Positions 115-35,232 of a stretch of 35,232 bases of DNA are shown one piece after another. Below the pieces are notes generated by a model. That model did not search any database. It saw only the letters and a list, made by a program, of their open reading frames with translations, and was not told the origin of the DNA. The DNA is from a virus (Duplodnaviria; Caudoviricetes). The first letter of the stretch is position 1. Each line of letters starts with the position of its first letter. The stretch lies in IMG/VR virus record IMGVR_UViG_3300005077_000062, positions 1-35,232 of that record; one strand, 5' to 3'. Made by a program: the position numbers and the translations under genes.

Positions 115-157
115 ACGAGAAGAGCGGGCCGCGCGTATCACAAGGAGAACCTGACCC

Positions 158-1066
158 ATGCCGACCTACATCACACTCGCCGAGATGGCGAAGCGCGAGA
201 AGGCGGGAAGCGCCATCGCCGAGCAGCTCAACCGCATCAGCCCGCTCATGTCCATGTTGCCGTTCGAGGTCGTCCCCGGCGGCATCAAGGAGTACGGCGT
301 GCGCGAGGCCCTGCCCAACATCGCCTTCCGTGGCGCGAACGAGACGCTGACGGCCAGCGTCTCCGTGATCAACCCCTACGCCGAGTCCTGTGCCATCGCG
401 GAGTCCAACCCGTGGATCGACCGCGCCGTGGTCACGGGCAACCCTGCCGAGGCGCTGGCGCTCGAGATGCTGGCGCACGTGGAGAAGATCAAGCAGCTCT
501 GGACCGACAGCTTCTTCTACGGCGACCGCGAGGTCACGCCGAAGGGACTGGACGGCGTGAACACGCGCGTGCTGGGCACGGGCAGCCAGTTCGTGAGCGG
601 CGGCGGCAACGGCAGTGACACCATGTCGTGCTGGATCTTCTCCTTCGGCCCGAACCGAGTGCAGGGGATCGTGCCTGACAACCAGGACTACCTCGACGCC
701 CAGATGCTCCCCGGCCTCGTGAAGCACGAGACCCTCAAGGTCATGGGTTACCAGGGGCACGTCTACTTCCGTGCGGGCATCGCGGTGTGTGATCCCCGCG
801 CCATCGCGCAGTACGGCAACCTCGAGTACACCACGAGCAACATGTTCTCGCTCGACGGCTTCGAGGAAGCTCTGTCGCTGGTGAGCCAGCCGAGTGCGGT
901 GTTCATGCCGCGCAAGTGCTGGCTGCGCTTCCAGTCGCAGGCCCGCAGCGCCGTGTCCGCGCTGATGCGGAACGAGCTGGGCCAGTGGTTCGCGGACTAC
1001 GGCGGTCTCCCCATCTTCATCGAAGAGGCGCTGACCATCACCGAGACCGTGAAGGCCACGAGCTAA
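158..1066 (+). CDS. Major capsid protein (HK97-fold)
   Basis: 302 aa; RBS AAGGAG; follows the scaffold gene; motifs TLAEMAKR, LPNIAFRGANE, FFYGD...PKGLDG and YGGLPI are typical of this MCP type; very high GC3. Confidence 0.85.
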   Translation: MPTYITLAEMAKREKAGSAIAEQLNRISPLMSMLPFEVVPGGIKEYGVREALPNIAFRGANETLTASVSVINPYAESCAIAESNPWIDRAVVTGNPAEALALEMLAHVEKIKQLWTDSFFYGDREVTPKGLDGVNTRVLGTGSQFVSGGGNGSDTMSCWIFSFGPNRVQGIVPDNQDYLDAQMLPGLVKHETLKVMGYQGHVYFRAGIAVCDPRAIAQYGNLEYTTSNMFSLDGFEEALSLVSQPSAVFMPRKCWLRFQSQARSAVSALMRNELGQWFADYGGLPIFIEEALTITETVKATS

Positions 1067-1110
1067 CCGACAACCGGCGCTCGTAGCGCCTCAGAATGGA
1101 GGGCAACACC

Positions 1111-1518
1111 ATGCCCAAGATCGGAACGGACATCAAGACGCGGTTCATCCCGCCCGTCGACGCGCAGGCCCTTTGCAGCGATGCGACCGCCTTCACGACC
1201 GATGCGACCGTCATCGGCAGCGGCTACGTGGACATCGGCTCCTCCGTCGTGGGGAGTCCCAGCGGCATCGGCGTGTGGTTCGTGCCGAAGCACGTGAGCG
1301 GCGGAACCAGCGTGACCTTCAAGCTCTACGGGGACGCCAGCGGCACCGCCGGATCGGAAGTCCTCGTGATGACCAGCAAGACCTACACGGTCGCCACGCT
1401 GGAGCCGATCTTCATGCCGATCCCTGACAACTTCGGCTACCAGTACGTGGCCGCGGGCGTCACCACGGTCGGCGCGGTCACCGGGACGTGGACGGCGTGG
1501 GTGGGCCGCAACCAGTAG
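1111..1518 (+). CDS. Probable capsid cement/decoration protein (Bbp16-like beta-sandwich)
   Basis: 135 aa, beta-rich, immediately after the MCP; GGAGGG RBS before ATG 1111; C-terminal YQYVAAGVTTVGAVTGTWTAWV pattern. Confidence 0.6.
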   Translation: MPKIGTDIKTRFIPPVDAQALCSDATAFTTDATVIGSGYVDIGSSVVGSPSGIGVWFVPKHVSGGTSVTFKLYGDASGTAGSEVLVMTSKTYTVATLEPIFMPIPDNFGYQYVAAGVTTVGAVTGTWTAWVGRNQ

Positions 1519-1519
1519 A

Positions 1520-1586
1520 CTCGTCTCGCAGCCTCCTGCCTGTCTGTGACGAGAGGGGAGCCGTCGTCTTGGCCCGGCGGCTCCCC
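1520..1586 (+). other. Tandem intergenic hairpins after the capsid genes (mRNA stabiliser or attenuator)
   Basis: CTCGTC..GCAG/CTGT.GACGAG at 1520-1553 and GGGGAGCCG/CGGCTCCCC at 1555-1586; no U-tract. Confidence 0.5.
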
Positions 1587-1618
1587 ACCCTACCAACGCC
1601 AAAGCGAGGATGTATCAC

Positions 1619-1915
1619 ATGATCATCGTGTGCAAGAAGGACAAGAAGGGCAACCCGATTCCCGGCACGGTGAGGGAGATCGGCGACTGCTATCTGAAGA
1701 GCTACCTCGCATCCGACGAGTGGATGGTCGTCCCTGTCGGCTCGAGCCTCGCCAGCGAAGCGGTCAAGCCCGTGCTGAAGGCCCAGCACGCCGAGAAGAA
1801 GGGCGACGTCAAGCCCGTGTTCGGCCCGCCCTCCAAGATGGTCGCCGTGTCTCACGAGCCTCCGGCTGAGCCTGCCAATCCTGCGAAGCCTGCGGAGCCT
1901 GCGAAGGGAGCGTGA
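1619..1915 (+). CDS. Hypothetical virion-module protein with Pro/Ala/Lys-rich tail
   Basis: GAGGA RBS before ATG 1619; 9-nt repeats encode PAEPANPAKPAEPAK. Confidence 0.7.
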   Translation: MIIVCKKDKKGNPIPGTVREIGDCYLKSYLASDEWMVVPVGSSLASEAVKPVLKAQHAEKKGDVKPVFGPPSKMVAVSHEPPAEPANPAKPAEPAKGA

Positions 1916-1918
1916 CGC

Positions 1919-2323
1919 ATGGCACTCTCGAACCCTGCTGTCTACTCGGATGTGGTGGCCCTGATGAGCCGCTACGCCGACTACGGCCTCTCGACCTCGA
2001 TGCTCACGACGTACTTGGCAAGCGCGTACAACTACGTGCAGATGCTCCTCTACGAGCAGGGCGTGGACCATGCCAAGATCGACAGCGACGACAGCGTGGC
2101 GTTCAAGCGCGTCATCGTGTTCAAGGCCCTCGAGCTGATCTACCAAGACCTGCAAGTCGGGAGCGGAGAAGGCAACGAGCGGTTCGCAGAGCAGCAGGCC
2201 GACTGGGAGAGGCGCTTCGACGACGCGTGGCCGAACATCCAATACACCGTGGACACCGACGACGACGGGACAGGTGACACGGAGGTCGAAGGCCCGACCA
2301 TCGTGACCCTCAGGCGGAGCTGA
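1919..2323 (+). CDS. Probable head-tail adaptor/connector
   Basis: 134 aa helical acidic protein in the usual adaptor position after the capsid genes. Confidence 0.6.
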   Translation: MALSNPAVYSDVVALMSRYADYGLSTSMLTTYLASAYNYVQMLLYEQGVDHAKIDSDDSVAFKRVIVFKALELIYQDLQVGSGEGNERFAEQQADWERRFDDAWPNIQYTVDTDDDGTGDTEVEGPTIVTLRRS

Positions 2324-2327
2324 CGCC

Positions 2328-2801
2328 ATGTCCTTCACGACCCCTACGTGGAAGAACCACACCACCGTCATCAGCGAGCGTGTTACAAGCGCCCTCGTTC
2401 CTGCCACGGGCTATGCGTGGCAGAACGCCGAGCCGGGGTTCATCCCCACTCCTGCAAACCTCGACACGCCGAAAGCGTGGATCGAGTTCCTTCCGCAGGA
2501 GCCGATAGAGGAGTTGGGCACGGACTTCCATTGGCTTCAGCCCGTCGAACTCAATCTCGCAACGCTCGTGAAGCGCAGCGGTGTAACACGACAGGCCGCG
2601 ATTGACAGCGTAGGCTTTGCCGTGCAGACACTCCTCAACCCGCTCGATGAGGACTACGTGGTGGACGCCTTCCATCGTGGGGTGGTCAGCGACTACGAAA
2701 TTGACTGGCACCAGAACACGCCGGAACTGCTGTGGGCGAAGGTTCTCCTGCGGTACCGCTGCGTGCGCCCGTGGAAAGAACCCGAGACCCCGAAAGAATA
2801 G
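2328..2801 (+). CDS. Probable tail terminator/neck protein
   Basis: 157 aa upstream of the tail tube gene; synteny and size. Confidence 0.55.
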   Translation: MSFTTPTWKNHTTVISERVTSALVPATGYAWQNAEPGFIPTPANLDTPKAWIEFLPQEPIEELGTDFHWLQPVELNLATLVKRSGVTRQAAIDSVGFAVQTLLNPLDEDYVVDAFHRGVVSDYEIDWHQNTPELLWAKVLLRYRCVRPWKEPETPKE

Positions 2802-2813
2802 GAGACGGCTACG

Positions 2814-2954
2814 ATGCCGAAGACCCAGTATCGTGACGAAGAGGGCAACCTCGTCAACACCGGGAGTCCGGCCCCGAAGCCGCCGGAAGAGGAGAGCGCG
2901 AAGCCTGTGAAGCCCGCGCCGAAGGAACCGGCCAGCCCGCCGAAGGAGGCATAG
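2814..2954 (+). CDS. Small Pro/Lys/Glu-rich protein (46 aa), absent from the ORF track
   Basis: AGGAG RBS, ATG 2814, MPKTQYRDEEGNLVNTGSPAPKPPEEESAKPVKPAPKEPASPPKEA, TAG abutting the next ATG. Confidence 0.7.
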   Translation: MPKTQYRDEEGNLVNTGSPAPKPPEEESAKPVKPAPKEPASPPKEA

Positions 2955-3968
2955 ATGGGCCACATGCACCTCGTCAATCGGTCGTTCCTGCTCGCCAAGC
3001 GTGAGACGACCTACGGCACCGACAGCAGCCCTGCCGCCGCAGACCTGATCGAGGTCTACGACTTGCAGATGAAGCCGTCGCTGGAGTCGGTCGTGCGAAC
3101 GACCAACAAGGCGAACATCAGTCCCGAGAAGCCTCTCATCGGGAAGCGCAGCAGCGGCGTGTCCTTCAAGGTTCCGCTGTGGGCACAGCCTTCCGGGGCC
3201 ATCTTCGCCGCGCCGCGCTGGACGCGGCTGCTCAAGGCGTGCGGCGTCCTCGGCACCGTGGGCACCAACGTCATCGCCTGCGCCCCGAGTAGCCTGACGC
3301 CGCCGCAGACGAACGGCCCGGACTCCCTGACCATGCTGGTGCTCGACAGTCCGCAGAGCACGAACCTCGGCACGGTGACGAAGCTGCTGGGCTGCGTGGG
3401 CACCGCGAAGTTCGTCCTCGTGAACGGGACGCTCCCCTACATCGAGTTCGAGTTCAGCGGGAGCTACGTCACGCCCGTGGCGTACAACAGCAGCACCCAC
3501 GTCTACTCGGGCAGTGAGGAGACGCTGACGGAGGTTCCGTGGTTGGCGACCCTGCTCACCGTCCGCAAGAACGTGGACTCCACCCCGGTCAACCTCTCCT
3601 CCAGCCTCGCTGCGATCCAGAGCATCGAACTCGATCTCGGCATGACGGTGGCGATGCGCGAGAGTTGTATCACGGCCAGCGGCGTCCTCGGCTTCTTCCA
3701 CTCCAGCCGTGCGCCGAAGATGACCATCAATCCCGAGCGTGATACACCGGGGACCATCGACTGGTGGACGCTGATGACTGCGGGCACGGTCATCGACGTG
3801 AAGGCTACCTTCGGCAGCGGCAACCGCGGCTACGTCTATGGGAAGTATGGGGTCATCACGGCGATCACTCCCGGCGACCGCAACGGCGTGGCCGTGGATC
3901 AGGTCGAGGTCAGCCTCTTCGGCGACGACAACGAGTTCGAGGTCTACACTACCTACGCCGCATCGTAG
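2955..3968 (+). CDS. Major tail (tube) protein
   Basis: 337 aa; N-terminal LLAKRETTYGTD and PRWTRLLKACG motifs typical of tail tube proteins; precedes chaperone and tape measure genes. Confidence 0.8.
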   Translation: MGHMHLVNRSFLLAKRETTYGTDSSPAAADLIEVYDLQMKPSLESVVRTTNKANISPEKPLIGKRSSGVSFKVPLWAQPSGAIFAAPRWTRLLKACGVLGTVGTNVIACAPSSLTPPQTNGPDSLTMLVLDSPQSTNLGTVTKLLGCVGTAKFVLVNGTLPYIEFEFSGSYVTPVAYNSSTHVYSGSEETLTEVPWLATLLTVRKNVDSTPVNLSSSLAAIQSIELDLGMTVAMRESCITASGVLGFFHSSRAPKMTINPERDTPGTIDWWTLMTAGTVIDVKATFGSGNRGYVYGKYGVITAITPGDRNGVAVDQVEVSLFGDDNEFEVYTTYAAS

Positions 3969-3997
3969 CGGCACAACCAGACAGGCAGGAGCAGGCC

Positions 3998-8023: not shown

Positions 8024-8024
8024 C

Positions 8025-14076: not shown

Positions 14077-14110
14077 TTCGACTTGATTAGATCAACCCAC
14101 TCACTACTTT
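14077..14110 (+). promoter_or_regulatory. Early promoter P1 with overlapping palindromic operator
   Basis: TTGATT-16-TACTTT; TTGAT-TAG-ATCAA palindrome over the -35; shares TCACTAC(T/A)TT and downstream TGTTCT with P2. Confidence 0.65.
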
Positions 14111-14936: not shown

Positions 14937-15701
14937 ATGAAGACCAACAAGACCACCAGCACGGCCACCACCAAGGCGACCGAGACCAAGGCGACCAAGG
15001 CCGACACGAAGGCCGCTGCCACGGTGAAGCTCACCAAGGAAGAGCGTCGTGCCGCCGCCTACGCCAAGGCGAAGGCGAAGCGAGCCGCCATGACGGACGA
15101 GGAGCGCAAGGAGCGCAAGGCGATGGGTCGCCAGATGGCGAGCAAGCGCCTGTCCAAGGGCTGGGTAGAGATCGGCAAGGAGAAGCGGGCGCGGCGGGAG
15201 CGTGGCGACGTCCTCGAGTTGACGGGCAGCGCCAAGGGCGGGAAGATCGCCGTGACCATCCGCCACGACGCCGAGTCCGACTCCTTCGGACTCAACGTCA
15301 CCGGCCTCGCCGTCTGCGGAATCCCCTGCGGTCTCAGCTTGGCTGCCGCCAAGGCGCTCGCCAAGCGGGTCGCCATGACCGACATTGATTGGGACAAGGC
15401 GACCGAGTCCGCGTCCGAGTCCGTCAAGACGACCGACGGCAAGCCCGCCGTCCGCGTGTTCGAGTACGTCCGCGGCGGTGAGACGTGGCGGATGCACTTC
15501 AACGGCGACACCGAGCGGGCCCAAGAGTTGACGGTTTACACCGACACCGACCCGGAGACGTACTACGGCACCTTCTGCCAGCCCGTCTTCCACGGCGGCG
15601 TGAAGGCCCTCACGAAGTCCGTCGCCGACATGATCGAGTCCAACCTGCTCTGCTACTTGATCGGTTCGCGGCAGATGGAGCGTGAGACGTTCGGCGAGTA
15701 A
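14937..15701 (+). CDS. Early hypothetical protein with Lys/Ala/Thr-rich basic N-terminus
   Basis: 254 aa; AAGGAG RBS; strong codon bias; TKAT repeats. Confidence 0.8.
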   Translation: MKTNKTTSTATTKATETKATKADTKAAATVKLTKEERRAAAYAKAKAKRAAMTDEERKERKAMGRQMASKRLSKGWVEIGKEKRARRERGDVLELTGSAKGGKIAVTIRHDAESDSFGLNVTGLAVCGIPCGLSLAAAKALAKRVAMTDIDWDKATESASESVKTTDGKPAVRVFEYVRGGETWRMHFNGDTERAQELTVYTDTDPETYYGTFCQPVFHGGVKALTKSVADMIESNLLCYLIGSRQMERETFGE

Positions 15702-15809: not shown

Positions 15810-15840
15810 ACTTGATCTAATCAAGTCGAATCACTACATT
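15810..15840 (+). promoter_or_regulatory. Early promoter P2 with palindromic operator
   Basis: TTGATC-17-TACATT; ACTTGAT-CTA-ATCAAGT palindrome; 15812-15830 is the exact reverse complement of 14077-14095. Confidence 0.7.
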
Positions 15841-17535: not shown

Positions 17536-17993
17536 CACCCATCACCATGAACGCCATGAGCGAGAGCTTCTACGACAAAGCCTTTCGCGGCGTGTCCATT
17601 CCCGCTCGCCTGAAAGCCGTGGCCGTTCGCATCTGTGACACCTACGGCATTCGCGGCGACGCTGACCCGCTCTACATCTGCAACGTCGTGGCCTACGAGA
17701 TGGCGGTCGGCGACGGGGAGGGTCTCTTCTGGGAGGAGGCTGGCCGTCGCTGGCGCGTGGATCGCATCGGCAACGCTTGGTGCGTGGTGGACACGGCGAC
17801 CAACGGGGTTGTGTCACGCCACGAAGTCACGGCAGAGTTCAGCGTGAGACAAGCGATGCAGGCGGCGATGGCGGAAGCCATGCGCCTCGACGACGTGTGG
17901 ATCACCACGTGGCTGGCTCGGCTCGCAGCCGAGCGTGGCGCGGTCGGTGTCGGCAGGGATCACATCTTCGCCAGCAGAGGAGACGGACGATGA
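17523..17993 (+). CDS. Hypothetical protein
   Basis: GGAG RBS before ATG 17523; ATGA-coupled to the next ORF. Confidence 0.7.
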   Translation: MRKLTPITMNAMSESFYDKAFRGVSIPARLKAVAVRICDTYGIRGDADPLYICNVVAYEMAVGDGEGLFWEEAGRRWRVDRIGNAWCVVDTATNGVVSRHEVTAEFSVRQAMQAAMAEAMRLDDVWITTWLARLAAERGAVGVGRDHIFASRGDGR

Positions 17994-18708: not shown

Positions 18709-18747
18709 GTGACACGCTGGAAACCAACTGTCAGAAAGGAGAGAGCG

Positions 18748-18978
18748 ATGCGAAAGGTCGCCGCCGAAGATGAGCGGGTGCGTCCCGGCCCGCGTCGGAA
18801 AGCCGTGAAACTCAGCGAGAAGGTGATGCTGTGTCTCACGCCGTCGGCTTTGCTTCGCGTGGAGCGAGCCGCAACCGTGCAGGGCAAGTCCATCTCGGAG
18901 TTCTGCCGAGATGCCGCAACATCCCGAGCCGACAAGGTGTTGGCTGGAATGACAACCAAAGCAGGAGGGAACGACTGA
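18748..18978 (+). CDS. Ribbon-helix-helix DNA-binding protein (DUF1778-like)
   Basis: AAAGGAG RBS; KVMLCLT (strand) followed by LLRVERAATVQGKSISEFCRDAA (helix-turn-helix of RHH). Confidence 0.7.
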   Translation: MRKVAAEDERVRPGPRRKAVKLSEKVMLCLTPSALLRVERAATVQGKSISEFCRDAATSRADKVLAGMTTKAGGND

Positions 18979-19758: not shown

Positions 19759-20736
19759 ATGGAAGACAACGTGCAGGAAGTCCTCAACGCGGTGGTGGAG
19801 GTGCTGGAGCGGGGTGGCGTCGTGTCACACGATAGCCCTCGCCTCGGCAATCTTCGCCACTACAACGCTCTTCGCAGGCCGGACAACTCGGCGCTGAAGA
19901 CGATCACGGGCGGCAACCTCAACGGGAAAACCGACATCAATCCGCAATGGCGGCTTGAGGCGATGACTCGCCAGTTCGGCCCCGTCGGCATCGGCTGGGG
20001 GTGGCGGCTCGTCCGAGTGTGGATGGAGAAGCCGAGCGACGCCAGCGGTGTCGTGCTGGCCTTCGCTGAGGTCGCTGTGTGGTACCGCGACCCTGTGACA
20101 CACGATCGCAGCGAAGACATCCCCGGCATCGGCGGCAACGAGATCGTGAAGGTCGAGGGAGGCTTCGTCGAAGACCCTGACAACCCTCGCGAGAAGGTGC
20201 GTCGCGCCTTCGTCTGCAAGCCAAACGACGAGGCTTACAAGATGGCCGTGACTGATGCGCTCTCCGTCGCGTTCAAGACCATCGGCGTCGGCGGCGACAT
20301 CTACGCCGGAGCGTGGGACGGCAGCAAGTATATCCGCCCGATGCCCGACGACGAAGGGGAGCCGCCGCAGCCGGAGACGTTGCGCCAGCCCGCTCGCCAA
20401 GCGGGACAGCCAGCAGCCACTCCTTCTCCCCAGCCGCAGAAGGGCATCACCGACGCCGAGGCTGAGAACCTCGTCGCCGCTGTGTGTGACAAGGTTCTCA
20501 AGTGTGACACGGCGACGGCTGCCAAGGCGGCGGCGAATGCGTGTCTCACGCACGAGTTGGCTCTGCTGAAGGCGCGGCCCAAGGATCGACAGAAGGTCAT
20601 GGGAACGATCCGCGAACACATCGAGATGCTCGAGGGCATGGCCGCTGCCGCCGCGCCCGCTGCTGGTGACGAAGGCCCGCTGAGTGCGGGACACGGCAGC
20701 AGAATCCTCCGCAGCGAAGAAGGGGAGCAAGCCTGA
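19759..20736 (+). CDS. Single-strand annealing recombinase, Rad52/Sak-like
   Basis: GKTDINPQWRLEAMTRQFGPVGIGW and DEAYKMAVTDALSVAFKTIGVGGDIY motifs; adjacent to SSB. Confidence 0.8.
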   Translation: MEDNVQEVLNAVVEVLERGGVVSHDSPRLGNLRHYNALRRPDNSALKTITGGNLNGKTDINPQWRLEAMTRQFGPVGIGWGWRLVRVWMEKPSDASGVVLAFAEVAVWYRDPVTHDRSEDIPGIGGNEIVKVEGGFVEDPDNPREKVRRAFVCKPNDEAYKMAVTDALSVAFKTIGVGGDIYAGAWDGSKYIRPMPDDEGEPPQPETLRQPARQAGQPAATPSPQPQKGITDAEAENLVAAVCDKVLKCDTATAAKAAANACLTHELALLKARPKDRQKVMGTIREHIEMLEGMAAAAAPAAGDEGPLSAGHGSRILRSEEGEQA

Positions 20737-21233: not shown

Positions 21234-22022
21234 GTGGGTTTCAACATGGTGCCAGACACCACGCTCGACCAACTGACCCTCCTCAAGCCGAAGGAGCGAC
21301 ACGTCGTCCTCTCCTGCTGGTGCCTGCCGGATCGTCGCTGGGGCGGTCTCTTCACCGTGTCGGCGAAGCGGCTGGCGTACTACACGGGTCTCTCCGTCCG
21401 CGAGGTTGAGAGCGCTCTCACAGGTGACACGCCAGCGAGAAAGCTCATCGAGTGGGACGCCGCGCTCGATCTGCTGTGGGTTCCCGGCATCGCTGCCGCC
21501 GACATGGCTCGTTGCAGCAACGAGAAACAACTCAAGGGTCTCGTCTCCAACATCAAGCAGGCACCGGCGTGTCCGCTGCGTGAGACAGCGGTGGTCTATC
21601 TCATGAGTCTATCCCATCCCCTATCGAATGCCCTACGGATAGCCCTATCGAATGGGCTATCTGGTGACCTATCGAAGACCCTACCGATAGGGTTCGTAGA
21701 CGTAGACGTAGACGTAGACGTAGAGGGCGGGTGCGCGGCAACCGACGAGGAGTGTGCCGCTGCGGTCGAGCGTGTCACGGCGTGGACACGCATTCTCAAG
21801 GGAACACGTCACGAGGTGACACAGCAGCAGATCGACAACTACGGCGACGACTTCATCCGCGCAGTTGCCGCCGTGTCACAAGAAGACATCGAGCAGATGG
21901 CGCGGGCGGTTCGTGCGAGCAAGTGGCTCAGGGAGGACGCTGGAGTCGTGAGCTTCCCGTGGGCGATCAAGAACCGAGAGCGGCTTCTCCGAGGGGAGTG
22001 GTCGCCCGACGCGAAGAGGTGA
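21234..22022 (+). CDS. Replication initiator (lambda O-like organisation)
   Basis: GGAGG RBS before GTG 21234; N-terminal wHTH-like AKRLAYYTGLSVREVESAL; internal DNA repeats and VDVDVDVDVE linker; C-terminal SFPWAIKNRERLLRGEW. Confidence 0.7.
   Translation: MGFNMVPDTTLDQLTLLKPKERHVVLSCWCLPDRRWGGLFTVSAKRLAYYTGLSVREVESALTGDTPARKLIEWDAALDLLWVPGIAAADMARCSNEKQLKGLVSNIKQAPACPLRETAVVYLMSLSHPLSNALRIALSNGLSGDLSKTLPIGFVDVDVDVDVEGGCAATDEECAAAVERVTAWTRILKGTRHEVTQQQIDNYGDDFIRAVAAVSQEDIEQMARAVRASKWLREDAGVVSFPWAIKNRERLLRGEWSPDAKR
21596..21725. repeat. Iteron-like array (probable replication origin) inside the initiator gene
   Basis: CTA(T/C)(C/G) units at 21609, 21621, 21633, 21645, 21657, 21669 and 21681 (12-bp period, plus 21596), then (GTAGAC)x4 at 21696-21719. 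Confidence 0.7.
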
Positions 22023-23985: not shown

Positions 23986-24236
23986 TTCTCAGGCGCGTGG
24001 CGTGTGTTCCCTACAACCGCAGGCCGCGAGACCGTGCAGCCGCCAATTATCGAGTGGACGGCGTGGATCGCTGCCGCTTCTGCGCTCCCACCTACCGAGA
24101 CGGGCGTGACACAGCACTCTGCGGGAGCTTCTGGAAAGGGAGCGTCTGCACGCGCCTTGCTGGACACGCAGGAGAGCACGTTGCCTGCGCGGACGGTGGC
24201 TCGTGTGACATCAAGCGATGGAGGAACGTCAGGTGA
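23973..24236 (+). CDS. Cys/His-rich hypothetical protein
   Basis: GGGAGG RBS, GTG start; CRFC and CTRLAGHAGEH metal-binding pattern. Confidence 0.55.
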   Translation: MSQVILRRVACVPYNRRPRDRAAANYRVDGVDRCRFCAPTYRDGRDTALCGSFWKGSVCTRLAGHAGEHVACADGGSCDIKRWRNVR

Positions 24237-24520
24237 CACAGAAGCGAAAGCGGGCGACGGGTCGGCTCATCAGCTACTCCGAGGCGCGGCGGATTCTCCA
24301 CGACGGAGGCTACTCCCGAGTGGGCGACAAAGAGCTTGCCGACCTCGAGGCCGCGCTGCGTGAGACGCTCGAACACCGCATCAGGATCACGCGAGGGCAC
24401 CGCGCCACGCGAAAGCGGGGCTGGAGGCTCAATGGCTGGGAGGCCGTCTTCATCGGCGGCGTGGACACACCGAGAGCGAAGAAGAAGGGAGGAGACATTG
24501 AAGAACCGAGCGACCGCTGA
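24233..24520 (+). CDS. Hypothetical protein
   Basis: GGAGG RBS; GTGA overlap with the previous stop. Confidence 0.55.
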   Translation: MTQKRKRATGRLISYSEARRILHDGGYSRVGDKELADLEAALRETLEHRIRITRGHRATRKRGWRLNGWEAVFIGGVDTPRAKKKGGDIEEPSDR

Positions 24521-26474: not shown

Positions 26475-26716
26475 AGCTCGACAGGCCATACCACATCGTC
26501 TGGCAGGGAGCGCGACGCATCTGCCGCGAGAGCTTCCCCAACGAGGACGCCATGAATGAGCGCTATCGAACGCTGGAGCGCATTCTCACCAGAGAGGCCG
26601 CTGCCACGCTTCACCGAGAATACCCCAAGGAGACGCAGCGAGGGCTGTGTCACAGTTCGATCAACGGGACGTTGTTCCCAAGCGAGGAGGTTCACCGTGA
26701 CGAAGCCGAAGACTGA
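26471..26716 (+). CDS. Hypothetical protein
   Basis: GGAGG RBS; ATGA overlap. Confidence 0.55.
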   Translation: MKLDRPYHIVWQGARRICRESFPNEDAMNERYRTLERILTREAAATLHREYPKETQRGLCHSSINGTLFPSEEVHRDEAED

Positions 26717-27248
26717 GAAGCCGAGCGGGATGAAGACCGTGCCGAGAGCCGATGTTCCCGCCAAGCCCGTTCCGCCAGCGCCGAAAGCCGAGACGCTCGT
26801 TGAGCGTGACGATCCGGCAAGCGACGCCGGAATTGTCGTGGACGGCGACATCGCTCCCTACTACCGACAGGTGTGTTCGCTGGTGGACAGCGCGGAGACG
26901 ATGAACAGCGGCGGCTGGGGCGAGTTCTGGCGCATGGTGCGCGGCATCGAGAAGGCGGCCCGCGAGGGTCTCGTCACCGCCGAGAAGATGAACGACGTGC
27001 TGCGGATGCAGAGCGCCATCCAGTTCGTGGACCACATCGTCGAGTGGTACACGCAGCGTGTCACGGAACTCAATGGCTGGGCCAAACGTAGCCCGCTCTT
27101 CGCCGAGCGCTACTGCTACGAGGCGCGGCTCACCGAGGCCGACGGTGTTCTGCGTGTCACGGTGGTGAACACCACCACGGGCGAACTCATCGGCGGCGGC
27201 TCCGCGCTTCCCAGCGAAGTGCTGGCCGTTCTCGACGCGAAGGCGTAG
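26697..27248 (+). CDS. Hypothetical protein
   Basis: GAGGAGG RBS before GTG 26697; GC3-rich codons. Confidence 0.65.
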   Translation: MTKPKTEKPSGMKTVPRADVPAKPVPPAPKAETLVERDDPASDAGIVVDGDIAPYYRQVCSLVDSAETMNSGGWGEFWRMVRGIEKAAREGLVTAEKMNDVLRMQSAIQFVDHIVEWYTQRVTELNGWAKRSPLFAERYCYEARLTEADGVLRVTVVNTTTGELIGGGSALPSEVLAVLDAKA

Positions 27249-27254
27249 CCGATC

Positions 27255-27985: not shown

Positions 27986-27988
27986 CAC

Positions 27989-28561
27989 ATGGCAGGGAAG
28001 AAGGCAGAGACGCCAACGCTCTCGCTCGTGAGTCTTCGCGTGGACGACCTCGTCCCCTACGCCAAGAACTCCAGAAAGCACAACGAGGGGCAGATTCGAG
28101 CGATTGCGGCGAGCATCAAGGAGTTCGGCTTCACAACGCCCATTCTGGTGAGCGACGACAACGTGGTTATCGCTGGACACGCAAGGCTCGACGCTGCGAG
28201 ATCGCTCAACATGGAGACCGTGCCGTGTGTGCGGTCTTCGCGTCTCACGAAGACGCAGATCGCCGCCTACAACATCGTGGACAACAGACTTGCCGAGATG
28301 GCGTCGTGGGACCACGAGTTGCTCGCCGCCGAGATCGAGATGCTTTCCAGCGAAGACTTCGACGTGAAGCTCCTCGGATTCTCGCAAGACTTCCTTGATC
28401 GAGTCCTGCTGCCGGATCGCGGGGAGTCCTCGCAGGCTGGCAACGAGAACATGAGGCCCAAGTTTTCGGTCATCGTTGAACTCGAGAACGAAGAGCAGCA
28501 GGCGAAGTTGCTCGAAGAACTCGAGGAAAGGGGGTTCGAGTGCCGAGCGTTGATGTTGTAG
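27989..28561 (+). CDS. ParB/Srx N-terminal domain protein (no HTH)
   Basis: LVPYAKNSRKH...IAASIKEFGFTTPILV...IAGHARLDAA...DNRLAEMASWD. Confidence 0.88.
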   Translation: MAGKKAETPTLSLVSLRVDDLVPYAKNSRKHNEGQIRAIAASIKEFGFTTPILVSDDNVVIAGHARLDAARSLNMETVPCVRSSRLTKTQIAAYNIVDNRLAEMASWDHELLAAEIEMLSSEDFDVKLLGFSQDFLDRVLLPDRGESSQAGNENMRPKFSVIVELENEEQQAKLLEELEERGFECRALML

Positions 28562-29694
28562 TCCACGGCCAAGCGCCAACCGGGGCGAGAGCGCGACAGA
28601 TCGAGGCGCTCTTCGACGTGCCGCCACGACAGAAGCAGACGCTTCGCTGGGTCGGCGACGTGCCGCTTGATGATCGAGAGTGGAGCGTCGGTCTCATCGT
28701 CGGCCCGTCTGGCAGCGGGAAGACAACCGTTGCCAAGCACCTATTCGGCGAGAACGCGGTTTGCAAGTCCTACGAGTGGGGCAGCGGCTGCGTGGTAGAC
28801 GACTTCCCGAAAGGGTTGCCGATGGCCGACGTGGCGGCGATCTGCCAGTCGGTGGGCTTCAACACGATTCCCGCGTGGCTGCGCCCGTATCACGTCCTCT
28901 CCAACGGCGAGAAGTTCCGCGTGGACATCGCTCGCAGACTCGCCGAACACAAGCCCGACGAGATCGTGGTGGTCGACGAGTTCACGAGCGTGGTGGACAG
29001 ACAAGTGGCGAAGATCGCCAGCCACGCTGTCGCCAAGTACGTCCGCAAGACGGGCGGCAAGTTCGTGGCCGTTGGGTGCCACTACGACGTGATCGACTGG
29101 CTCCAGCCCGACTGGATTCTCGAGCCGACGGAGATGCGCTTCCAATGGAGGTCACTTCAACGACGACCAGCCATTGAGGTCACGATGGAGAAGGTCGTCC
29201 ATGAGTCTTGGCGGCTATTCGCTCCGTTCCACTACATGAGTCACGAGTTGCACACCGCCGCCCAATGCTATTGCCTCTTCATCGACGACGCGCCCGCCGT
29301 TATCGGTGCGATGCTGCACAGACCGCACAGACTCGTCTCCGACATCTGGGGATTGAGCCGCATCGTCACGCTGCCAGACTTTCAGGGCATGGGTTTGGCG
29401 TTCGTGCTGATGGATCGACTTGCCGAAGCGTTCTCCGCTTGTGGGAAGCGATTCCACGCCTATCCGGCACACCCCGCTCTCATCAACTCCTTCAAGCGGT
29501 CGCCGAACTACAAGATGGTCCACGACGCAGGCTTCAGGACGCCCAATGCGAGGTACATCAAGGGAACGGCTCACAAGGGACTCGGCGTCGCTGGGAAGTT
29601 CGGCGGGCGACCGTGCGCCGTGTTTCAGTACGTCGGCCCGAAGATGGAAGATCGGTCGGCGGCGAGACGCTTTCTCGCCATCAAGAGCATCTGA
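28540..29694 (+). CDS. ABC-type ATPase fused to a GNAT acetyltransferase
   Basis: Walker A GPSGSGKTT, signature LSNGE, Walker B VVVDEFTSVVDR, H-loop GCHYD; C-terminal acetyl-CoA motif SRIVTLPDFQGMGLA; no TM partner nearby. Confidence 0.85.
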   Translation: MPSVDVVVHGQAPTGARARQIEALFDVPPRQKQTLRWVGDVPLDDREWSVGLIVGPSGSGKTTVAKHLFGENAVCKSYEWGSGCVVDDFPKGLPMADVAAICQSVGFNTIPAWLRPYHVLSNGEKFRVDIARRLAEHKPDEIVVVDEFTSVVDRQVAKIASHAVAKYVRKTGGKFVAVGCHYDVIDWLQPDWILEPTEMRFQWRSLQRRPAIEVTMEKVVHESWRLFAPFHYMSHELHTAAQCYCLFIDDAPAVIGAMLHRPHRLVSDIWGLSRIVTLPDFQGMGLAFVLMDRLAEAFSACGKRFHAYPAHPALINSFKRSPNYKMVHDAGFRTPNARYIKGTAHKGLGVAGKFGGRPCAVFQYVGPKMEDRSAARRFLAIKSI

Positions 29695-29709
29695 AGTTTA
29701 CACCCCTCC

Positions 29710-30261
29710 ATGGCAAAGCTGAAACGGCAGGAAACTCCAGCAAAGGCCAAGGCAGCGCCCAAGACGAAGCCAGCGGCCAAAGCTGTGACACGCAAGACGG
29801 CGGCGAAGCCCACCAAGCGACCCGCCGCCGCTGCTCCTGCCGCGCCAGTCGTGGCAGAGAAGACCGAGCGCAAGCCGTGGACGCGACTGACCGATGAACG
29901 CCTCGAGGTGATACTTCGGGGCATTCAAACGGGTCTCGGCATTGACGACGCCTGCTTGATCGGCGACGTGTCACCGGAGGCGTTGGTGAAGCTGCGAAAG
30001 CGCGACCCCGACGTGGACTTTCGAGTGAGAAAGGCTCTCGCGCAATCGAGAGCCTTTGTCGTGACACAGGCTGTCAAGCTGCTGCGCGACGGCGACGGGC
30101 CGACGATCCGCTACTGGCTCGACCGCCGCAACGTCCACTTCAACCCCGAACTGGTGGAGGCCCAGCGGCGGGCAGGCACAGGAGACGACGTGGAGAACAG
30201 CATCGAGGTCGTGGGCTTCAAGTTCGTGCCACGCAAGCGCAAGGACGAGGAGACCCCGTGA
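29710..30261 (+). CDS. terS: Terminase small subunit (with Lys/Ala/Pro-rich N-terminus)
   Basis: HTH-like GLGIDDACLIGDVSPEAL segment; overlaps the terL start. Confidence 0.7.
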   Translation: MAKLKRQETPAKAKAAPKTKPAAKAVTRKTAAKPTKRPAAAAPAAPVVAEKTERKPWTRLTDERLEVILRGIQTGLGIDDACLIGDVSPEALVKLRKRDPDVDFRVRKALAQSRAFVVTQAVKLLRDGDGPTIRYWLDRRNVHFNPELVEAQRRAGTGDDVENSIEVVGFKFVPRKRKDEETP

Positions 30262-31613
30262 GACAAGAGGTTGACGCCGAGGTCGAACTCAACCCGACGC
30301 AGATCGCCTTTGCCGAGAGCGACGCCAAGCACTCGCTGATGGTGGCGGGCATGGGCGCGGGCAAGTCTCACGGGCTTCGTGCCAAGCTGCTTCGCCGCAT
30401 CGAGCAGAACCACCGCCACATGACACGCAAGAGTCCCGGCGTGTACCTTGCTCCGACCTACGACATGATCTCCAACCTCGTGCAACCGAACCTCATGGAT
30501 CTGTTCGACGCCTACCGCATCCCGCACCGATACAAGCAAGACGACCACCTCCTCACCTTCACCTTCGGCGGGCGCGAGTGTCACATGCGCCTGCTCTCCG
30601 CTGAGAACTACGACCGATACATGGGGCCCGCCTTCCCGTTCATCGTTGGCGACGAGATCGAGTTGTGCTTCCGCACCCGCGTCTCCAAGATCGAGGTGAT
30701 GTGGAAGAAGTTTCTGAGCCGCCTGCGTGTGCCGGGAGCCACCAACAGCTTCGACGTGGCGGGCACTCCCGAGGGCTTCGGCTTCTTCTGGGAGTGGTGG
30801 GAGAACAGGCTTGTGACACAGCCCTCGCTGGCGAAGCAGTACCAGCTATTTCGCGCCAGCACCTACGAGAACGCCGACAACCTTCCCGAGGACTACATCG
30901 AGGGCTTGCTGCGCGACTACGACCCGCAGCGCATCAAAGCCTACATCTTCGGCGAGTTCGTGAACCTGACGACGGGCGCGATCTACACCAGCTTCCGCAG
31001 GGACAAGCACGTTCGGCGCGGCGTCTACGAGATGCGAGACCCTCACCTTCCGCTTGAGTTCTGCTTCGACTTCAACGTGAACCCGATGACGGTAGTCGTG
31101 TCACAGTACCAGCATCCGCGCCTTCTCGTCCTTGCTGTGTTACAACCGAGGTCGAGCCATACCGAGGACGCTTGCAACGAAGTGCTGGGAGAGTTCGGCG
31201 GGCATCCCGGCCCCTGCCTGATCTACGGCGATGCGACTTCGAAGGCACGCAAGTCCAGCAGCGCAGGCCGCAGCGACCGCGACATCATCGACGCCATTCT
31301 CGGAAAGGCGTGGGCCTCCAAAGGCTACGACACGCGGTGGACGAAGACGAACCCTTGGCAGCCTGATCGACACGCAGCCGTCAACACCTTCCTTGCCTCT
31401 GATAGGGCGCTGATCGATGAGGAGCGCGGCAAGCCGCTGGTGATCGACCTCGTGAGACAAACCTACCGGGAGGGCACACGCGAAGAGGACGACCAAGGAG
31501 GGACGCTGGGCCACGCCGCTGCCGCATTCGGCTATCGTGTCTTCCGCGACTTCAAGGCAGGGCCAACGATTGAAGAGCGCATGAGCGGCAGAGGCAGGAA
31601 GAGTGCAGCGTGA
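30258..31613 (+). CDS. terL: Terminase large subunit
   Basis: Walker A AGMGAGKS, YLAPT, Walker B IVGDE, GTPEG, ASTYEN, nuclease FCFDFNVNPM and YGDA. Confidence 0.93.
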   Translation: MRQEVDAEVELNPTQIAFAESDAKHSLMVAGMGAGKSHGLRAKLLRRIEQNHRHMTRKSPGVYLAPTYDMISNLVQPNLMDLFDAYRIPHRYKQDDHLLTFTFGGRECHMRLLSAENYDRYMGPAFPFIVGDEIELCFRTRVSKIEVMWKKFLSRLRVPGATNSFDVAGTPEGFGFFWEWWENRLVTQPSLAKQYQLFRASTYENADNLPEDYIEGLLRDYDPQRIKAYIFGEFVNLTTGAIYTSFRRDKHVRRGVYEMRDPHLPLEFCFDFNVNPMTVVVSQYQHPRLLVLAVLQPRSSHTEDACNEVLGEFGGHPGPCLIYGDATSKARKSSSAGRSDRDIIDAILGKAWASKGYDTRWTKTNPWQPDRHAAVNTFLASDRALIDEERGKPLVIDLVRQTYREGTREEDDQGGTLGHAAAAFGYRVFRDFKAGPTIEERMSGRGRKSAA

Positions 31614-31902
31614 GACACGACAGGAGGCTCGTGTGGATCAGAAGACCAAGAGGATGCTCAAGCTGTTGGAGACGCTTCACGAGAGCGGCGTGGTGTCTTC
31701 GAGTAGGCTGCGGATGGTGCGAATCCATTGCGCCTACTGGGAGCTTCGTGCAGCAGATGTGCATCCGACCCCTGCGCGTGACATCGTAGCAGATGCGTTC
31801 GGTGTCACGCCCGACACGGTAGAGACTTACGCGAAGAGGAGGAACCGCTACTCTCTCAGCGGTGAGGTGATAGAATCATCCCTTGACAGCGAAGGGCAAT
31901 AG
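31603..31902 (+). CDS. Small HTH protein between terL and portal
   Basis: ARDIVADAFGVTPDTVETY helix-turn-helix pattern; exact start uncertain. Confidence 0.55.
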   Translation: MQRETRQEARVDQKTKRMLKLLETLHESGVVSSSRLRMVRIHCAYWELRAADVHPTPARDIVADAFGVTPDTVETYAKRRNRYSLSGEVIESSLDSEGQ

Positions 31903-31916
31903 AAGGACAATCAGCC

Positions 31917-33437
31917 ATGAGCATCGGCGCATTCACCAGCACTCTCGGGTTCTCAGCGCAGTCGCAATGGGCAGCGGATGAGAAGCGGCGTCGTGACGCG
32001 GCGGTGGCGCGTGAGACAGTCTACTACCATTGGCATGATGAACTCCTCGCCCTCGTGCAGGCAGAACTCAGCCGCGTGAGCGACGTCAACCTTGACACGA
32101 TCCCGTTCCAGCCGCTCAATATCTGCGGGCGCATCATCAGCGACCTCGCGATGATCTACAAGAAGCCTGCCCGCCGCCGCGTTGGCGACGTTGACCCCTA
32201 CGAGGGGATCAAGAGCAACATCAACGTGCAGGCGCGGGCATGGGATGCGCTGGCGCGGCTGCACAATACCGTGCTCGTGCGGCCCTTCTGGTGGAAGGAC
32301 GAGGAGCGACTCGAGTACCGCATCTACACTCCGGCGCACACGGAAGTGAAGTGGCGTGAGGACGACTACACGCGCCCTGAGAGCGTGGTGTACTACACCA
32401 GCAGGCTCTCGCCGAGCGGCATGTACGAGAGTATCGCCTACGAGTGGACCTCTACCGATGCTCGCATGATTACGGCAGAAGGTGAGGATGTGATCGACGG
32501 GCTGCGTGATACAAGCAACCCGTATGGAGAGCTTCCCTTCGTGGTGCTACGCCTGCAAGACATGGGCGACTTCTGGGGAGAGGGAGCGACCGAGCTGACG
32601 CAAGCCAACGTGCAGTTCCTCGCGCAATGGAGCCTGCTGCTCGAGAACGCCCAGCAGCAGGGGTTCTCCATCCCCTTCGGCATCAACACGGGACTCGGGC
32701 GCAGGGTTCTCAGCCAGAGCGAGACGGGATCGAACGAACTGCGAACGGTCGGCATCGGCCCACGCAAGGGCATCTTCGTCGAGAACGTGGCAAGCGAAGA
32801 GGCAACGCCAAGCCTCACGTACATCACGCCGCAGCCGCTTCTCGACGCCACGGGGCGGCTGCTGGACAAGAGCCTGAGTCTCGTCTGCTGGAGGTACGGC
32901 CTCTCGATGGACCGGCTCGCGATCATCAAGAGCGATGCGGGACTCAGGAACGGGCAGTCAGGCGTGGCGAAGGCGCTCGACAACGCAGACCTCGAAGAGA
33001 TCAGGGAAGCCGCGCTCGAGACCTACCGCGAGTTCGAGAGCGAACTCTATCGCGTGACCGCCATGGTGCTTGCGAAGGACGGCGGGCCTACGCTGCCAGA
33101 CCCGAAGGAGTTTCGCATCGACTTCGCCGAGCTTGATGTCAAGCGCACCTTCGACGAGATCAAGGCCGAGAGGGAGTTCAAGCTCGCAAACGGCATGGCG
33201 ACGGTGCCCGAGTTTATGGTCGAGGACAACCCCGACCTCAAGCTCCCTGACGCGCAGAAGAAGTGGCGTGAGAACATGGCGCTCAACGAGGAGTTGACCC
33301 TTGCAACCGGGATTCGAGGAGCACTACAACCGGACGACGAGCCTGCACGAGAAGGTGAGGACGCTGACGAAGGAAGGGATGCCGAGACCGAAGGCGAGGG
33401 CGCTCCTGACCGAAAAGGGAAGGGCGGCTTGGTTTAA
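31917..33437 (+). CDS. Portal protein (SPP1-like)
   Basis: 506 aa after terL; NPYGELPFVVL, SGVAK and FRIDFAE motifs; acidic tail. Confidence 0.88.
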   Translation: MSIGAFTSTLGFSAQSQWAADEKRRRDAAVARETVYYHWHDELLALVQAELSRVSDVNLDTIPFQPLNICGRIISDLAMIYKKPARRRVGDVDPYEGIKSNINVQARAWDALARLHNTVLVRPFWWKDEERLEYRIYTPAHTEVKWREDDYTRPESVVYYTSRLSPSGMYESIAYEWTSTDARMITAEGEDVIDGLRDTSNPYGELPFVVLRLQDMGDFWGEGATELTQANVQFLAQWSLLLENAQQQGFSIPFGINTGLGRRVLSQSETGSNELRTVGIGPRKGIFVENVASEEATPSLTYITPQPLLDATGRLLDKSLSLVCWRYGLSMDRLAIIKSDAGLRNGQSGVAKALDNADLEEIREAALETYREFESELYRVTAMVLAKDGGPTLPDPKEFRIDFAELDVKRTFDEIKAEREFKLANGMATVPEFMVEDNPDLKLPDAQKKWRENMALNEELTLATGIRGALQPDDEPAREGEDADEGRDAETEGEGAPDRKGKGGLV

Positions 33438-33573
33438 GGCCGTCCGCAAGTTCCTCGTGCAAGTGGCTGGCGAAGCCTTGCGAGAGGCGGATGCGCTCGG
33501 TGATACATTCGGCAAGGAAACGAGGGCGGCGTGGCGGAAGAGATCACGGTCAAGTGGCCGAAGCTCAACCTGA
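33301..33573 (+). CDS. Possible overlapping small gene between portal and morphogenesis gene
   Basis: GAGGAG 7 nt before TTG 33301; spans the otherwise empty 33438-33530 gap. Confidence 0.4.
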   Translation: MQPGFEEHYNRTTSLHEKVRTLTKEGMPRPKARALLTEKGRAAWFKAVRKFLVQVAGEALREADALGDTFGKETRAAWRKRSRSSGRSST

Positions 33574-34025
33574 CCTCTACGCTTGAGCGTGTATCACGCG
33601 CATTCGTGAGGACGATGAGAACCTTCGTGACACAGCAGAAGGCCATCGACTTTGGTCCGGTTGCGAAACTTGCTGCGAGTACTCTGGCAGCGCGGAAACG
33701 CAGAGGGAACGACAGCGAGGAGCGGTTGCGTGACACAGGCAAGCTGCTTGAGGATGGGTTCAAAGAGACCGTGAAGCCTCTCTCTCTCACGCTTGCGCTG
33801 CGAAACGCAAAGCACCCGGGGAGCAAAGCGACATACGCAGAGATCGGAGCCTACAACCAGTTGAGCCATCCTGACCACAACACGAGGACGACAACGCACA
33901 ACTGGTTCGGCGTGACACAAGCAGAGGCGACGTGGTCTTCCGACTTGGTGCTCGCTGAGGCTGTGAGCCAGATACGCAAGGGCGCTGTATTCAAGGGCAA
34001 GCTCAAGGTCAACCTGAAGTTCTGA
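33531..34025 (+). CDS. Virion morphogenesis/tail completion protein (Mu gpG-like)
   Basis: LAASTLAARKRRG...LRDTGKL...WFGVT pattern typical of this family. Confidence 0.65.
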   Translation: MAEEITVKWPKLNLTSTLERVSRAFVRTMRTFVTQQKAIDFGPVAKLAASTLAARKRRGNDSEERLRDTGKLLEDGFKETVKPLSLTLALRNAKHPGSKATYAEIGAYNQLSHPDHNTRTTTHNWFGVTQAEATWSSDLVLAEAVSQIRKGAVFKGKLKVNLKF

Positions 34026-34486
34026 TGGCACTCTCTCGAAGGCTCATCATCTCGCTCCTCGTGAGCGAACTCGATAGCGACCTTGACAGCAGGTCCGACT
34101 TGCTTGCTGCCGACCTGACCCGCTTGGCTTCGAGCGGGATGTCGGCTGCGGCTGTGACACGCCTCATGCAGGCTCGCATCGAAGAGATGATCAGCAGCAT
34201 GGCGCACGCTGCGACAACGCAGATTCGTGAGAGCATCAACAGCATGGTCTTCACGAGCTATTGGGAGAAGGTCGCGCAGGAGAGCGATTACTTCCTGTGG
34301 GAGATGGAGCCGAGCGCGAAGCATTGCGATGACTGCGTGGACCGCTCTGGCAAGGTCGGCACTGCAGCGGAGATGGGCAACGTAGGCTTTCCCGGCAGCG
34401 GCGCAACAAAGTGCCGACAGAACTGCCGATGCGCTATCATTCCCATCACGCGAGAGGATTACGAGAACGGCACGAAGATCAGTTAG
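34025..34486 (+). CDS. Minor head protein (Mu gpF/SPP1 gp7-like C-terminal domain)
   Basis: HCDDC...PGSGATKCRQNCRC motif. Confidence 0.7.
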   Translation: MALSRRLIISLLVSELDSDLDSRSDLLAADLTRLASSGMSAAAVTRLMQARIEEMISSMAHAATTQIRESINSMVFTSYWEKVAQESDYFLWEMEPSAKHCDDCVDRSGKVGTAAEMGNVGFPGSGATKCRQNCRCAIIPITREDYENGTKIS

Positions 34487-34557
34487 CGGGTTGGCCCAGA
34501 GGTACGGCACCGGTCTCATACGCCGGATGGACGCGGGTTCGACTCCCGCACCCGCTA
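34485..34557 (+). tRNA. tRNA-Met (CAT), no encoded CCA
   Basis: Acceptor AGCGGGT/ACCCGCT plus A73; D arm GCC/GGC; anticodon arm CCGGT-CTCATAC-GCCGG; T arm GCGGG-TTCGACT-CCCGC. Confidence 0.88.
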
Positions 34558-34635
34558 TGCGATGCCGACTGCGATAGTGTCGGGCGGGCTGGTCCGCATA
34601 ACCTGTGGCCGCAGGGCCGAAATCTGGAGAGACCC

Positions 34636-35232
34636 ATGTTCGAGAAGCTCTGGTGGTGTAACACGCGACTGCTGGCTCCCGAAGGAGACGAGGGCGGCGG
34701 CGGTGGCAACGGTGAGAAGGACGGAGAAGGTGGCGGCGAGAAGGACGCCGTGCAGAAGCGCATCGACAGGATGACGGCGAAGCACAAGGCCGAGATGGAG
34801 AAGGCCGACGCGGATCGGAAGGCTCTCTCCGAGAAGCTGGCGAAGCTCGAAGAAGCCGAAGCGAAGCGCACGGGCGACCTCACGACCCTTCTGGAAACCC
34901 AGAAGGCGACCATCAAGACGCTCGAGCAGAAGGTCGAGACCTTGACCGCCGTAGAGCGCAAGTTCCTCGACGATCAGAAGGCTCGGTGGGCGAGGGTCAC
35001 GAAGGCTCTCGAGGAAACCGAACTCGGAAAGAAGGCGCTCACCACGGGCGTGTTCAAGACGGGCGACGAGCCTGAGATCATCGAAGCCAACCTCGCGCAC
35101 TACGAGAGCTTGGAGGCGGCAGGCTTCTTCGGCGAAGAGGAGAAGCCCGACGGAAGCTCCCGTGAGAAGAAGGGGAGCCGCCGCGCAATCGAAACCACGA
35201 AGGCACCGCACCAGCGGCTCGCTGATGCCCTC
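34636..35232 (+). CDS. Capsid scaffolding protein (about 203 aa; ends at 114 across the junction), absent from the ORF track
   Basis: GGAG RBS, ATG 34636; Gly/acidic N-terminus, then coiled coil VQKRIDRMTAK...; directly upstream of the MCP on the circle. Confidence 0.85.
   Translation, partial: MFEKLWWCNTRLLAPEGDEGGGGGNGEKDGEGGGEKDAVQKRIDRMTAKHKAEMEKADADRKALSEKLAKLEEAEAKRTGDLTTLLETQKATIKTLEQKVETLTAVERKFLDDQKARWARVTKALEETELGKKALTTGVFKTGDEPEIIEANLAHYESLEAAGFFGEEEKPDGSSREKKGSRRAIETTKAPHQRLADAL
35134..35232. repeat. Terminal direct repeat, copy 2
   Basis: Identical to 1-99. Confidence 0.97.

Follow-up and report, generated by a model that had tools for sequence, protein, structure and literature searches.

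The near-palindromic word GTGACAC and its variants GTGAGAC, GTGATAC and GTAACAC were found in 121 copies, dispersed over both strands of the phage genome IMGVR_UViG_3300005077_000062 (Duplodnaviria; Caudoviricetes; positions 1 to 35,232 of the IMG/VR record), which is referred to here, at its full length of 35,232 nucleotides, as the window. The word is real, strongly maintained and specific to one phage family. It is tentatively read as a lattice that was selected for coverage and is bound by a dimeric protein encoded by the phage family, a reading whose probability is put a little short of even. The window was the complete, circularly permuted genome of a siphophage, present as a single contig with a 99-base terminal repeat. 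It had a G+C content of 63.3% and about 56 called genes, every one of which was on the plus strand.

Both strands considered, GTGACAC was present 54 times, GTGAGAC 40 times, GTGATAC 20 times and GTAACAC 7 times, with 66 sites on the plus strand and 55 on the minus strand. A preliminary description of the sequence, made by eye, had counted about 118 copies (66 and 52), and all 18 positions that it gave as examples were exact. Its rough zero-order expectation of about 14 copies and its densities of 2.3 and 4.5 sites/kb also agreed with the computed values, which were 13.8 copies, 2.36/kb at 1–14 kb and 4.57/kb at 14–28 kb (3.3/kb in the remainder). GTGACAC was the highest-ranked 7-mer of the window under Markov models of orders 3 and 4, and the enrichment was 7–11-fold over a Markov-2 null and 4–8-fold over codon-based nulls. 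The 98 in-gene sites compared with 12.9 in global synonymous shuffles, 21.7 in per-gene shuffles and 22.3 in shuffles that preserved synonymous codons and junction dinucleotides, and the highest in-gene count among 500 codon-preserving shuffles was 35. The excess therefore survived codon preservation, in line with the earlier proposal that selection acts on the DNA rather than on the protein.

The sites were located mainly inside genes (97–98, about 80%), with 13 in intergenic regions and 11 at start or stop junctions. The mean gap was about 288 bp, and the smallest distance was 16 bp between the starts of a same-orientation pair. Gene starts were not enriched, with 13 sites within 30 bp against 11.7 expected. 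Five of the six classes of frame and orientation were used, and the sixth class would create a stop codon. The lower density in the head and tail genes was composed of fewer possible positions and a lower use of them (27/68 vs 47/88). Among the positions at which the protein permitted a site, 98 of 201 carried one in the window, whereas four control words were used at 0–2% of theirs (0–4% in the related phage G001, described below). Positions that permitted GTGWCAC were themselves in excess over proteins with shuffled amino-acid order, at 95 vs 54 in the window and 104 vs 54 in G001; therefore, the protein sequence was biased too. Ten of the 27 TCA codons lay inside sites. Other GTNNNAC words of the window were close to expectation in the shuffle comparison.

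Read on opposite strands, GTGACAC and GTGTCAC represent one odd palindrome, GTG-W-CAC. The outer GT and AC were invariant, and the three inner bases tolerated substitution. Together with these invariant outer bases, the gradient of 54, 40, 20 and 7 near-cognate copies looks like an affinity landscape. At position −1, T or C was found and A was avoided (2/121). At position +1, A was present in 56 of 121 sites against 21 expected in a frame-matched comparison, and T and C were disfavoured. The preference for T at −1 and A at +1 was shared by all three phages that carried the word. Beyond these two positions, nothing exceeded |z| of about 3 within 30 bases after frame matching. The information was thus confined to −1 and +1, so that the heptamer of the preliminary description, itself correct, is more accurately described as a quasi-palindrome of 9 bp, YGTG-W-CACR.

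No second half-site was found, and there were no abutting pairs in the window. A bipartite site was rejected; the raw counts showed too many A at ±12 and too many CTAC at −14, but frame matching cut this excess to z values of 1.9–2.8. The site parS is a palindrome that spans 16 bp and joins two GTGAAACA-type halves, and GTGAAAC had been described as its half-site and as seen only once. The single copy (18805) was confirmed; with 1.4–2.3 copies expected, its scarcity is not a significant avoidance and the word is neutral. With this neutrality and no paired half-sites, the link to parS was not supported, and a parS site was rejected.

Turnover and spacing of sites in related phages

A capsid search gave six relatives (50–63%), none of which came from NCBI genomes. 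From these, G001 (36.5 kb) was used for the genome comparison, G002 being the same phage. A scan for relatives with a single protein found none, and a metagenome scan retrieved G001 again and nothing else. G001 was syntenic with the window, with a DNA identity of 70–80% over 17 kb, and four-fold sites were 52% identical. It contained 119 sites (GTGACAC 95, GTGAGAC 20, GTGATAC 3 and GTAACAC 1) and, in addition, 31 copies of GTGSCAC against 12 expected. The two phages therefore differed in dialect: GTGATAC was enriched 11.5-fold in the window and 1.7-fold in G001, whereas GTGSCAC stood at 0.7-fold and 2.6-fold, respectively.

In codon alignments of the two phages, in which GTGSCAC was counted as a site, 21 of 97 site columns were shared and 76 were occupied in one phage only. 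For 60 of these 76 columns, the protein of the other phage could not encode a site. Where both proteins were permissive, a site in the window predicted a site in G001 (21/31 vs 6/26, p=0.001). The shared columns exchanged variants, and five of them showed in-place flips between GTGTCAC and GTGACAC, three of which were Ser/Thr changes (Table 1). These flips and the lack of a strand effect supported the earlier view of a dispersed binding code without strand polarity. Furthermore, the Que cassette of G001, which is not shared with the window, was fully tiled, with 11 sites in 3.45 kb.

The gaps between sites were more even than random at 14.3–28 kb of the window (coefficient of variation, CV, 0.70 vs 0.98, p=0.0006), with p=0.04 for the whole window and p=0.24 for the whole G001 genome. 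A site within 50 bp lowered the use of a possible position in G001 (7/81 vs 31/101, p=0.0004), and the same test in the window gave 17/98 vs 27/92 (p=0.065; permutation p=0.03). This neighbour avoidance had no consistent dependence on strand. The spacing on each strand taken alone was irregular (CV 0.9–1.13), and no helical phasing of 10–11 bp was seen among the sites. Even spacing and neighbour avoidance fit selection for coverage.

A further 53 terminase loci were compared. Two of them, both from a single phage (G003/G004), had GTGSCAC as their top word, and the other 51 had nothing comparable. G003 was 33.5 kb long with 52% G+C, and its capsid, portal, tail and connector homologues were 24–35% identical; judged from these sequences, it proved to be a true family member. 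GTGSCAC was present at 13 of its 39 possible coding positions against 2.4–2.6 in shuffles, with the same T and A flanks. In 50 loci that shared only a common portal, tail tube or few head genes, no excess was observed. The word was found in all three syntenic family members, in differing dialects, and in none of 101 loci sharing one or few genes. The expected enrichment in related phages was thus found in G001 and, more weakly, in G003. As a separate feature, G003 encodes a peptidase C10 family protein adjoining its lysis region (locus L198, 1935–2972).

Candidate readers and competing explanations

In the preferred reading, YGTG-W-CACR would be written genome-wide through the choice of codons and amino acids, as the likely docking site of a two-fold symmetric protein that binds double-stranded DNA and is probably encoded by the phage family. 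The bound protein would mark and organise the phage DNA lengthwise. The selected property would be coverage rather than individual sites, such that most positions lie no more than one or two hundred bases from a site. Its downstream purpose may, as a guess, be the discrimination of phage from host DNA in replication or packaging, or compaction. That the reader is a dimeric binder of double-stranded DNA is probable from the symmetry of the site, the graded near-cognates, the turnover at constant density and the neighbour avoidance. A phage-encoded reader was favoured over a host reader because dialects drifted between close phages and a host signature was lacking.

PHROG and Pfam scans of 67 open reading frames (ORFs; named here by their start positions) identified capsid, tail tube, tape measure, holin, endolysin, SSB, resolvase, ParB-N, ABC-ATPase/GNAT fusion and terminase genes in the window. 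No match to an integrase, primase or polymerase was obtained in these scans, and no methylase domain was found among the ORFs scanned with Pfam. The closest cultured terminases were about 30% identical to that of the window. Profile searches of G003 detected homologues of the virion and packaging genes, ParB-N and ORF 26697 only. Besides ParB-N, ORF 26697 was the sole non-virion, non-packaging gene detectable in all three motif-bearing phages, and it was found only in motif-bearing IMG/VR records (4/4 loci). Its predicted fold was a helical bundle of a generic kind, accompanied by a small sheet. Fold searches matched generic helical bundles only, and a structure-atlas search gave no usable match.

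ORF 24233 was modelled with a pLDDT of 54 and helices at residues 15–24 and 32–56. Its best VIA match was a nucleosome chain (Z 4.5, r.m.s.d. 3.4 over 53 residues), about half of the 50 structural matches listed were histone folds, and the atlas neighbour score was 0.77. It had no Pfam match, and its sole homologue was found in G001. The predicted histone-fold resemblance, also noticed by eye, is a weak lead only. Published phage histones carry an extra C-terminal helical domain, as described in the available text of PMC11390915, which the low-confidence model of ORF 24233 did not contain. Both dense genomes, the window and G001, carry ORF 24233. In a more elaborate form of the preferred reading, which is unlikely, the sites would be a chromatin map written in genes: a phage dimer, possibly with the histone-like ORF 24233, would nucleate at YGTGWCACR sites at least one footprint apart and package the whole genome as a nucleoprotein addressed by sequence, a structure not available to the host chromosome. 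The preliminary description had named the ribbon-helix-helix (RHH) protein at 18748, a winged helix-turn-helix protein at 24498 and a basic protein at 14937 as candidates; these had homologues in G001, but none was detectable in G003 and none was confirmed.

Table 1. Coordinates of the array, selected sites and genes discussed in the text
Feature	Position	Strand	Remarks
Dispersed array, 121 sites GTGA[C/G/T]AC / GTAACAC	135..34664	both	consensus YGTG-W-CACR
Site flipped in place in G001	17811..17817	-	GTGTCAC vs GTGACAC; Ser vs Thr
Intergenic site	18709..18715	+	directly after AT-rich stretch, upstream of RHH gene; kept in G001
RHH-like protein, candidate reader	18748..18978	+	TacA1/NikA-like, weak Arc-like match; 70% in G001; not detected in G003
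Site present as GTGCCAC in G001	20504..20510	+	change at the central base; Asp vs Ala
Site flipped in place in G001	21873..21879	-	VSQ vs VTQ
Basic 95-aa protein, candidate reader	24233..24520	+	weak likeness to a histone fold; 70% identity in G001; no homologue detected in G003
183-aa helical protein, candidate reader	26697..27248	+	pI 5.2; no fold match
ParB N-terminal-domain protein	27989..28561	+	pI 4.9; heads putative modification cassette in all three phages
ABC-ATPase/GNAT fusion	28540..29694	+	likely DNA modification; contains one site only
Terminase small subunit (TerS)	29710..30261	+	weak PHROG match; candidate reader if sites serve packaging
terL site with in-place flip in G001	31098..31104	-	VSQ vs VTQ

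Several observations weigh against a phage-encoded coverage lattice. No recognisable DNA-binding gene had detectable homologues in all three phages, and the shared ORF 26697 was acidic in two of them and without a fold match. Site-free gaps of about 1 kb in the window and of 2.1 kb in the tape measure region of G001 were tolerated. G003 had about 1.1 sites/kb overall with few between 2.6 and 13 kb, a density too low to form a coat. The G003 signal is also weaker evidence because it was picked out post hoc among the 53 loci. The known set comprises just three distinct phages, and two of these are related closely enough to be non-independent. Residual restriction-type palindromes were not closer to sites in the window (p=0.89) and were farther from them in G001 (114 vs 74 bp, p=0.0002); therefore, simple shielding from type II enzymes, the local form of the protective role raised earlier, was unsupported. 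Finally, spacing alone does not decide, because a set point of site density is also predicted by the repair ratchet that the available text of Elhai (2015, PMC4390886) describes for HIP1, a hyper-abundant cyanobacterial word.

In such a ratchet, host methylation-directed mismatch repair would fix mutations toward a methylated word until the set point is reached, and the word would have no function. Under the ratchet, as described there, site numbers should saturate and new sites should be less frequent close to existing ones. This pattern was seen, and host repair could act on the phage since no DNA polymerase was found among the scanned ORFs. It is nevertheless unlikely. The host chromosome should share the word, and none of 115 loci from a GTDB pattern scan and none of 45 genomes came near the phage density. 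There was no invariant methylase core, the other GTNNNAC words being near expectation; deviations were tolerated at the inner bases, whereas those of HIP1 lie at the outer ones; and the predicted set point is about 1/kb against 3.4/kb in the window.

A host protein could also be the reader, such as an abundant, sequence-specific nucleoid, partition or regulatory dimer that immediately coats the incoming phage DNA or is titrated away by the thousands of sites that replication produces. This reading is unlikely, though less so than the other alternatives. No recognisable DNA-binding gene was common to the phages, phage gene expression would not be needed, and the dialects could track differing host species. 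The specificity, however, differed between fairly close phages faster than would be expected of a conserved host protein, and no unrelated phage with genome-wide dispersal of the word was found among the 22 and 27 loci of two IMG/VR pattern scans, which were low-powered because neither retrieved G001. The search for a host signature, raised in the preliminary description, was negative within limits. In the GTDB scan for a three-copy pattern, none of the 115 loci had flanks tiled like the phage, although 35 had flanks of only about 300 bp, and whole-genome counts in 45 of the genomes hit gave 0.04–0.41 sites/kb against about 3.2/kb in the phage. In simulations, the scan yielded 1–9 hits per 4 Mb at 3.4 sites/kb, 0–3 at 2/kb and none at 1/kb; it was thus powered only for hosts with at least about 2 sites/kb, and the host was not identified. 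If a dense host were in GTDB, the scan would probably have revealed it, whereas a modest excess or a host absent from GTDB would have been missed.

The genes common to all three phages were those for packaging and the virion, and site realisation peaked in the terminase–portal region of G001 (20/29). Both would agree with distributed packaging signals that the small terminase, or a different packaging component, recognises and that allow packaging to start anywhere on phage, but not host, DNA. This is very unlikely, since few sites would be enough, TerS was not detectably conserved with G003, and the terminase–portal region of the window (22/43) did not exceed the early region (47/88). A single-strand signal, either a Chi-like nuclease attenuator or a primase start site, is highly improbable. 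Both orientations of the word occur, and Chi is over-represented in some phages, but its values in the available text of PMC3784561 are about 0.2/kb and an observed-to-expected ratio (O/E) of about 3, and a strand-polar signal does not agree with the in-place flips and the lack of a strand effect. The irregular per-strand spacing, the strand-independent exclusion and the lack of a primase match among the scanned ORFs stand against a primase array.

A ParB-N gene headed a cassette in all three phages. Each cassette is taken by us, from family names, to be one for DNA modification; ParB/ABC-GNAT modification modules were reportedly described by Iyer et al. in 2013. In the window (27989–29694), ParB-N was followed by the ABC-ATPase/GNAT fusion. 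The G001 cassette (L140, 14488–18522) contained a TGT-like gene and QueD, QueE, FolE and transporter genes, with QueC not seen among the called ORFs, and the G003 cassette (L198, 4307–6895) contained a TAGT glycosyltransferase and a radical SAM enzyme. The word might accordingly be imagined as a site where the modification cassette of the phage itself acts or is loaded, perhaps via the shared ParB-N protein, as had been proposed in part. This has very little probability, because the same core word went with three unrelated chemistries. Moreover, ORF 27989 was acidic and matched ParB_N only (residues 14–102) with no helix-turn-helix match, and ParB-N-type proteins occur widely among phage families (20 PHROG matches). 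CTAG was wholly missing from the window and from G001, and more than 20 palindromic 5–6-mers were strongly avoided in both, pointing to hosts that may be rich in restriction systems.

Comparison with known systems and other features

Phage operators and stoperators are 13–17 bp long, lie between genes or at gene starts and keep fixed positions, and the stoperators of Cluster A are symmetric, scattered and specific to a phage family. A network of this kind was rejected for the present word, with no information past ±1 base, no enrichment at gene starts and 76 of 97 columns unshared. The uptake sequences of Neisseriaceae and Pasteurellaceae are written into genes at a codon and amino-acid cost, are evenly spaced and form lineage dialects. 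They are non-palindromic 9–12-mers of competent hosts, and we know of no uptake route for phage DNA.

HIP1 (GCGATCGC), as the available text of PMC5861425 and PMC4390886 presents it, is likewise a short hyper-abundant palindrome in ORFs that is conserved beyond chance; its reader is not known either, and a structural role has been proposed. It differs in being chromosomal, tied to GATC/CGATCG methylases, deviant at its outer bases and in 15–300-fold excess, whereas the present word belongs to a phage family, is odd-length and degenerate at its inner bases, has dialects and is in 7–11-fold excess over Markov-2. The dyad repeats of Cluster O mycobacteriophages, in the available text of PMC4351075, are also family-specific, symmetric, scattered sites with unproven function and reader. 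These are invariant and 17 bp long, number about 34 in a 70-kb genome, lie for the most part between genes or close to starts, and keep fixed positions, in contrast to a word of 7–9 bp with 121 copies in 35 kb, 80% of them in genes, that turns over. Chi of lambdoid phages is a short over-represented word that serves a DNA-processing machine, but it is asymmetric, rarer (about 0.2/kb, O/E about 3) and shared with the host (PMC3784561, available text). By analogy, the word appears to resemble HIP1 and uptake sequences in its manner of being written and the Cluster O repeats in its phage specificity, and it lacks a defining property of each. A limited literature search for the word or a comparable phage pattern returned nothing relevant, which does not prove it unpublished.

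For decades, the role of hyper-abundant words such as HIP1 has stayed unsettled, since deleting them all from a chromosome is not feasible. In the present case, a word of similar kind occurs once per about 290 bp in a 35-kb phage of about 56 genes, with natural dialects and a measurable bias on the proteins. Its reader could be found among a few dozen proteins, and the entire set of sites could be recoded. If the coverage reading is true, a phage addresses its entire genome via a second code laid over its genes.

Three further features were also observed. A dispersed CCTAGG was present at 0.9–1.5/kb in five related phage loci (L172, L178, L179, L185 and L192), against 0–0.18/kb in 13 loci of the same group, and is another example, unrelated to the first, of a dispersed palindrome specific to a lineage; a gene-content comparison of these loci gave no convincing associated gene. 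A 19-bp element with the core TTGAT-N3-ATCAA was present in the window in two copies of opposite orientation (14077–14095 and 15812–15830), with a variant at position 2785 of G001. Each copy overlay, by eye, a sigma70-like −35 sequence, a promoter scan of the window made no call at either copy, and the element is a possible operator candidate. A single tRNA-Met (CAT) gene was located at 34484–34558, between the MuF-like and scaffold genes.

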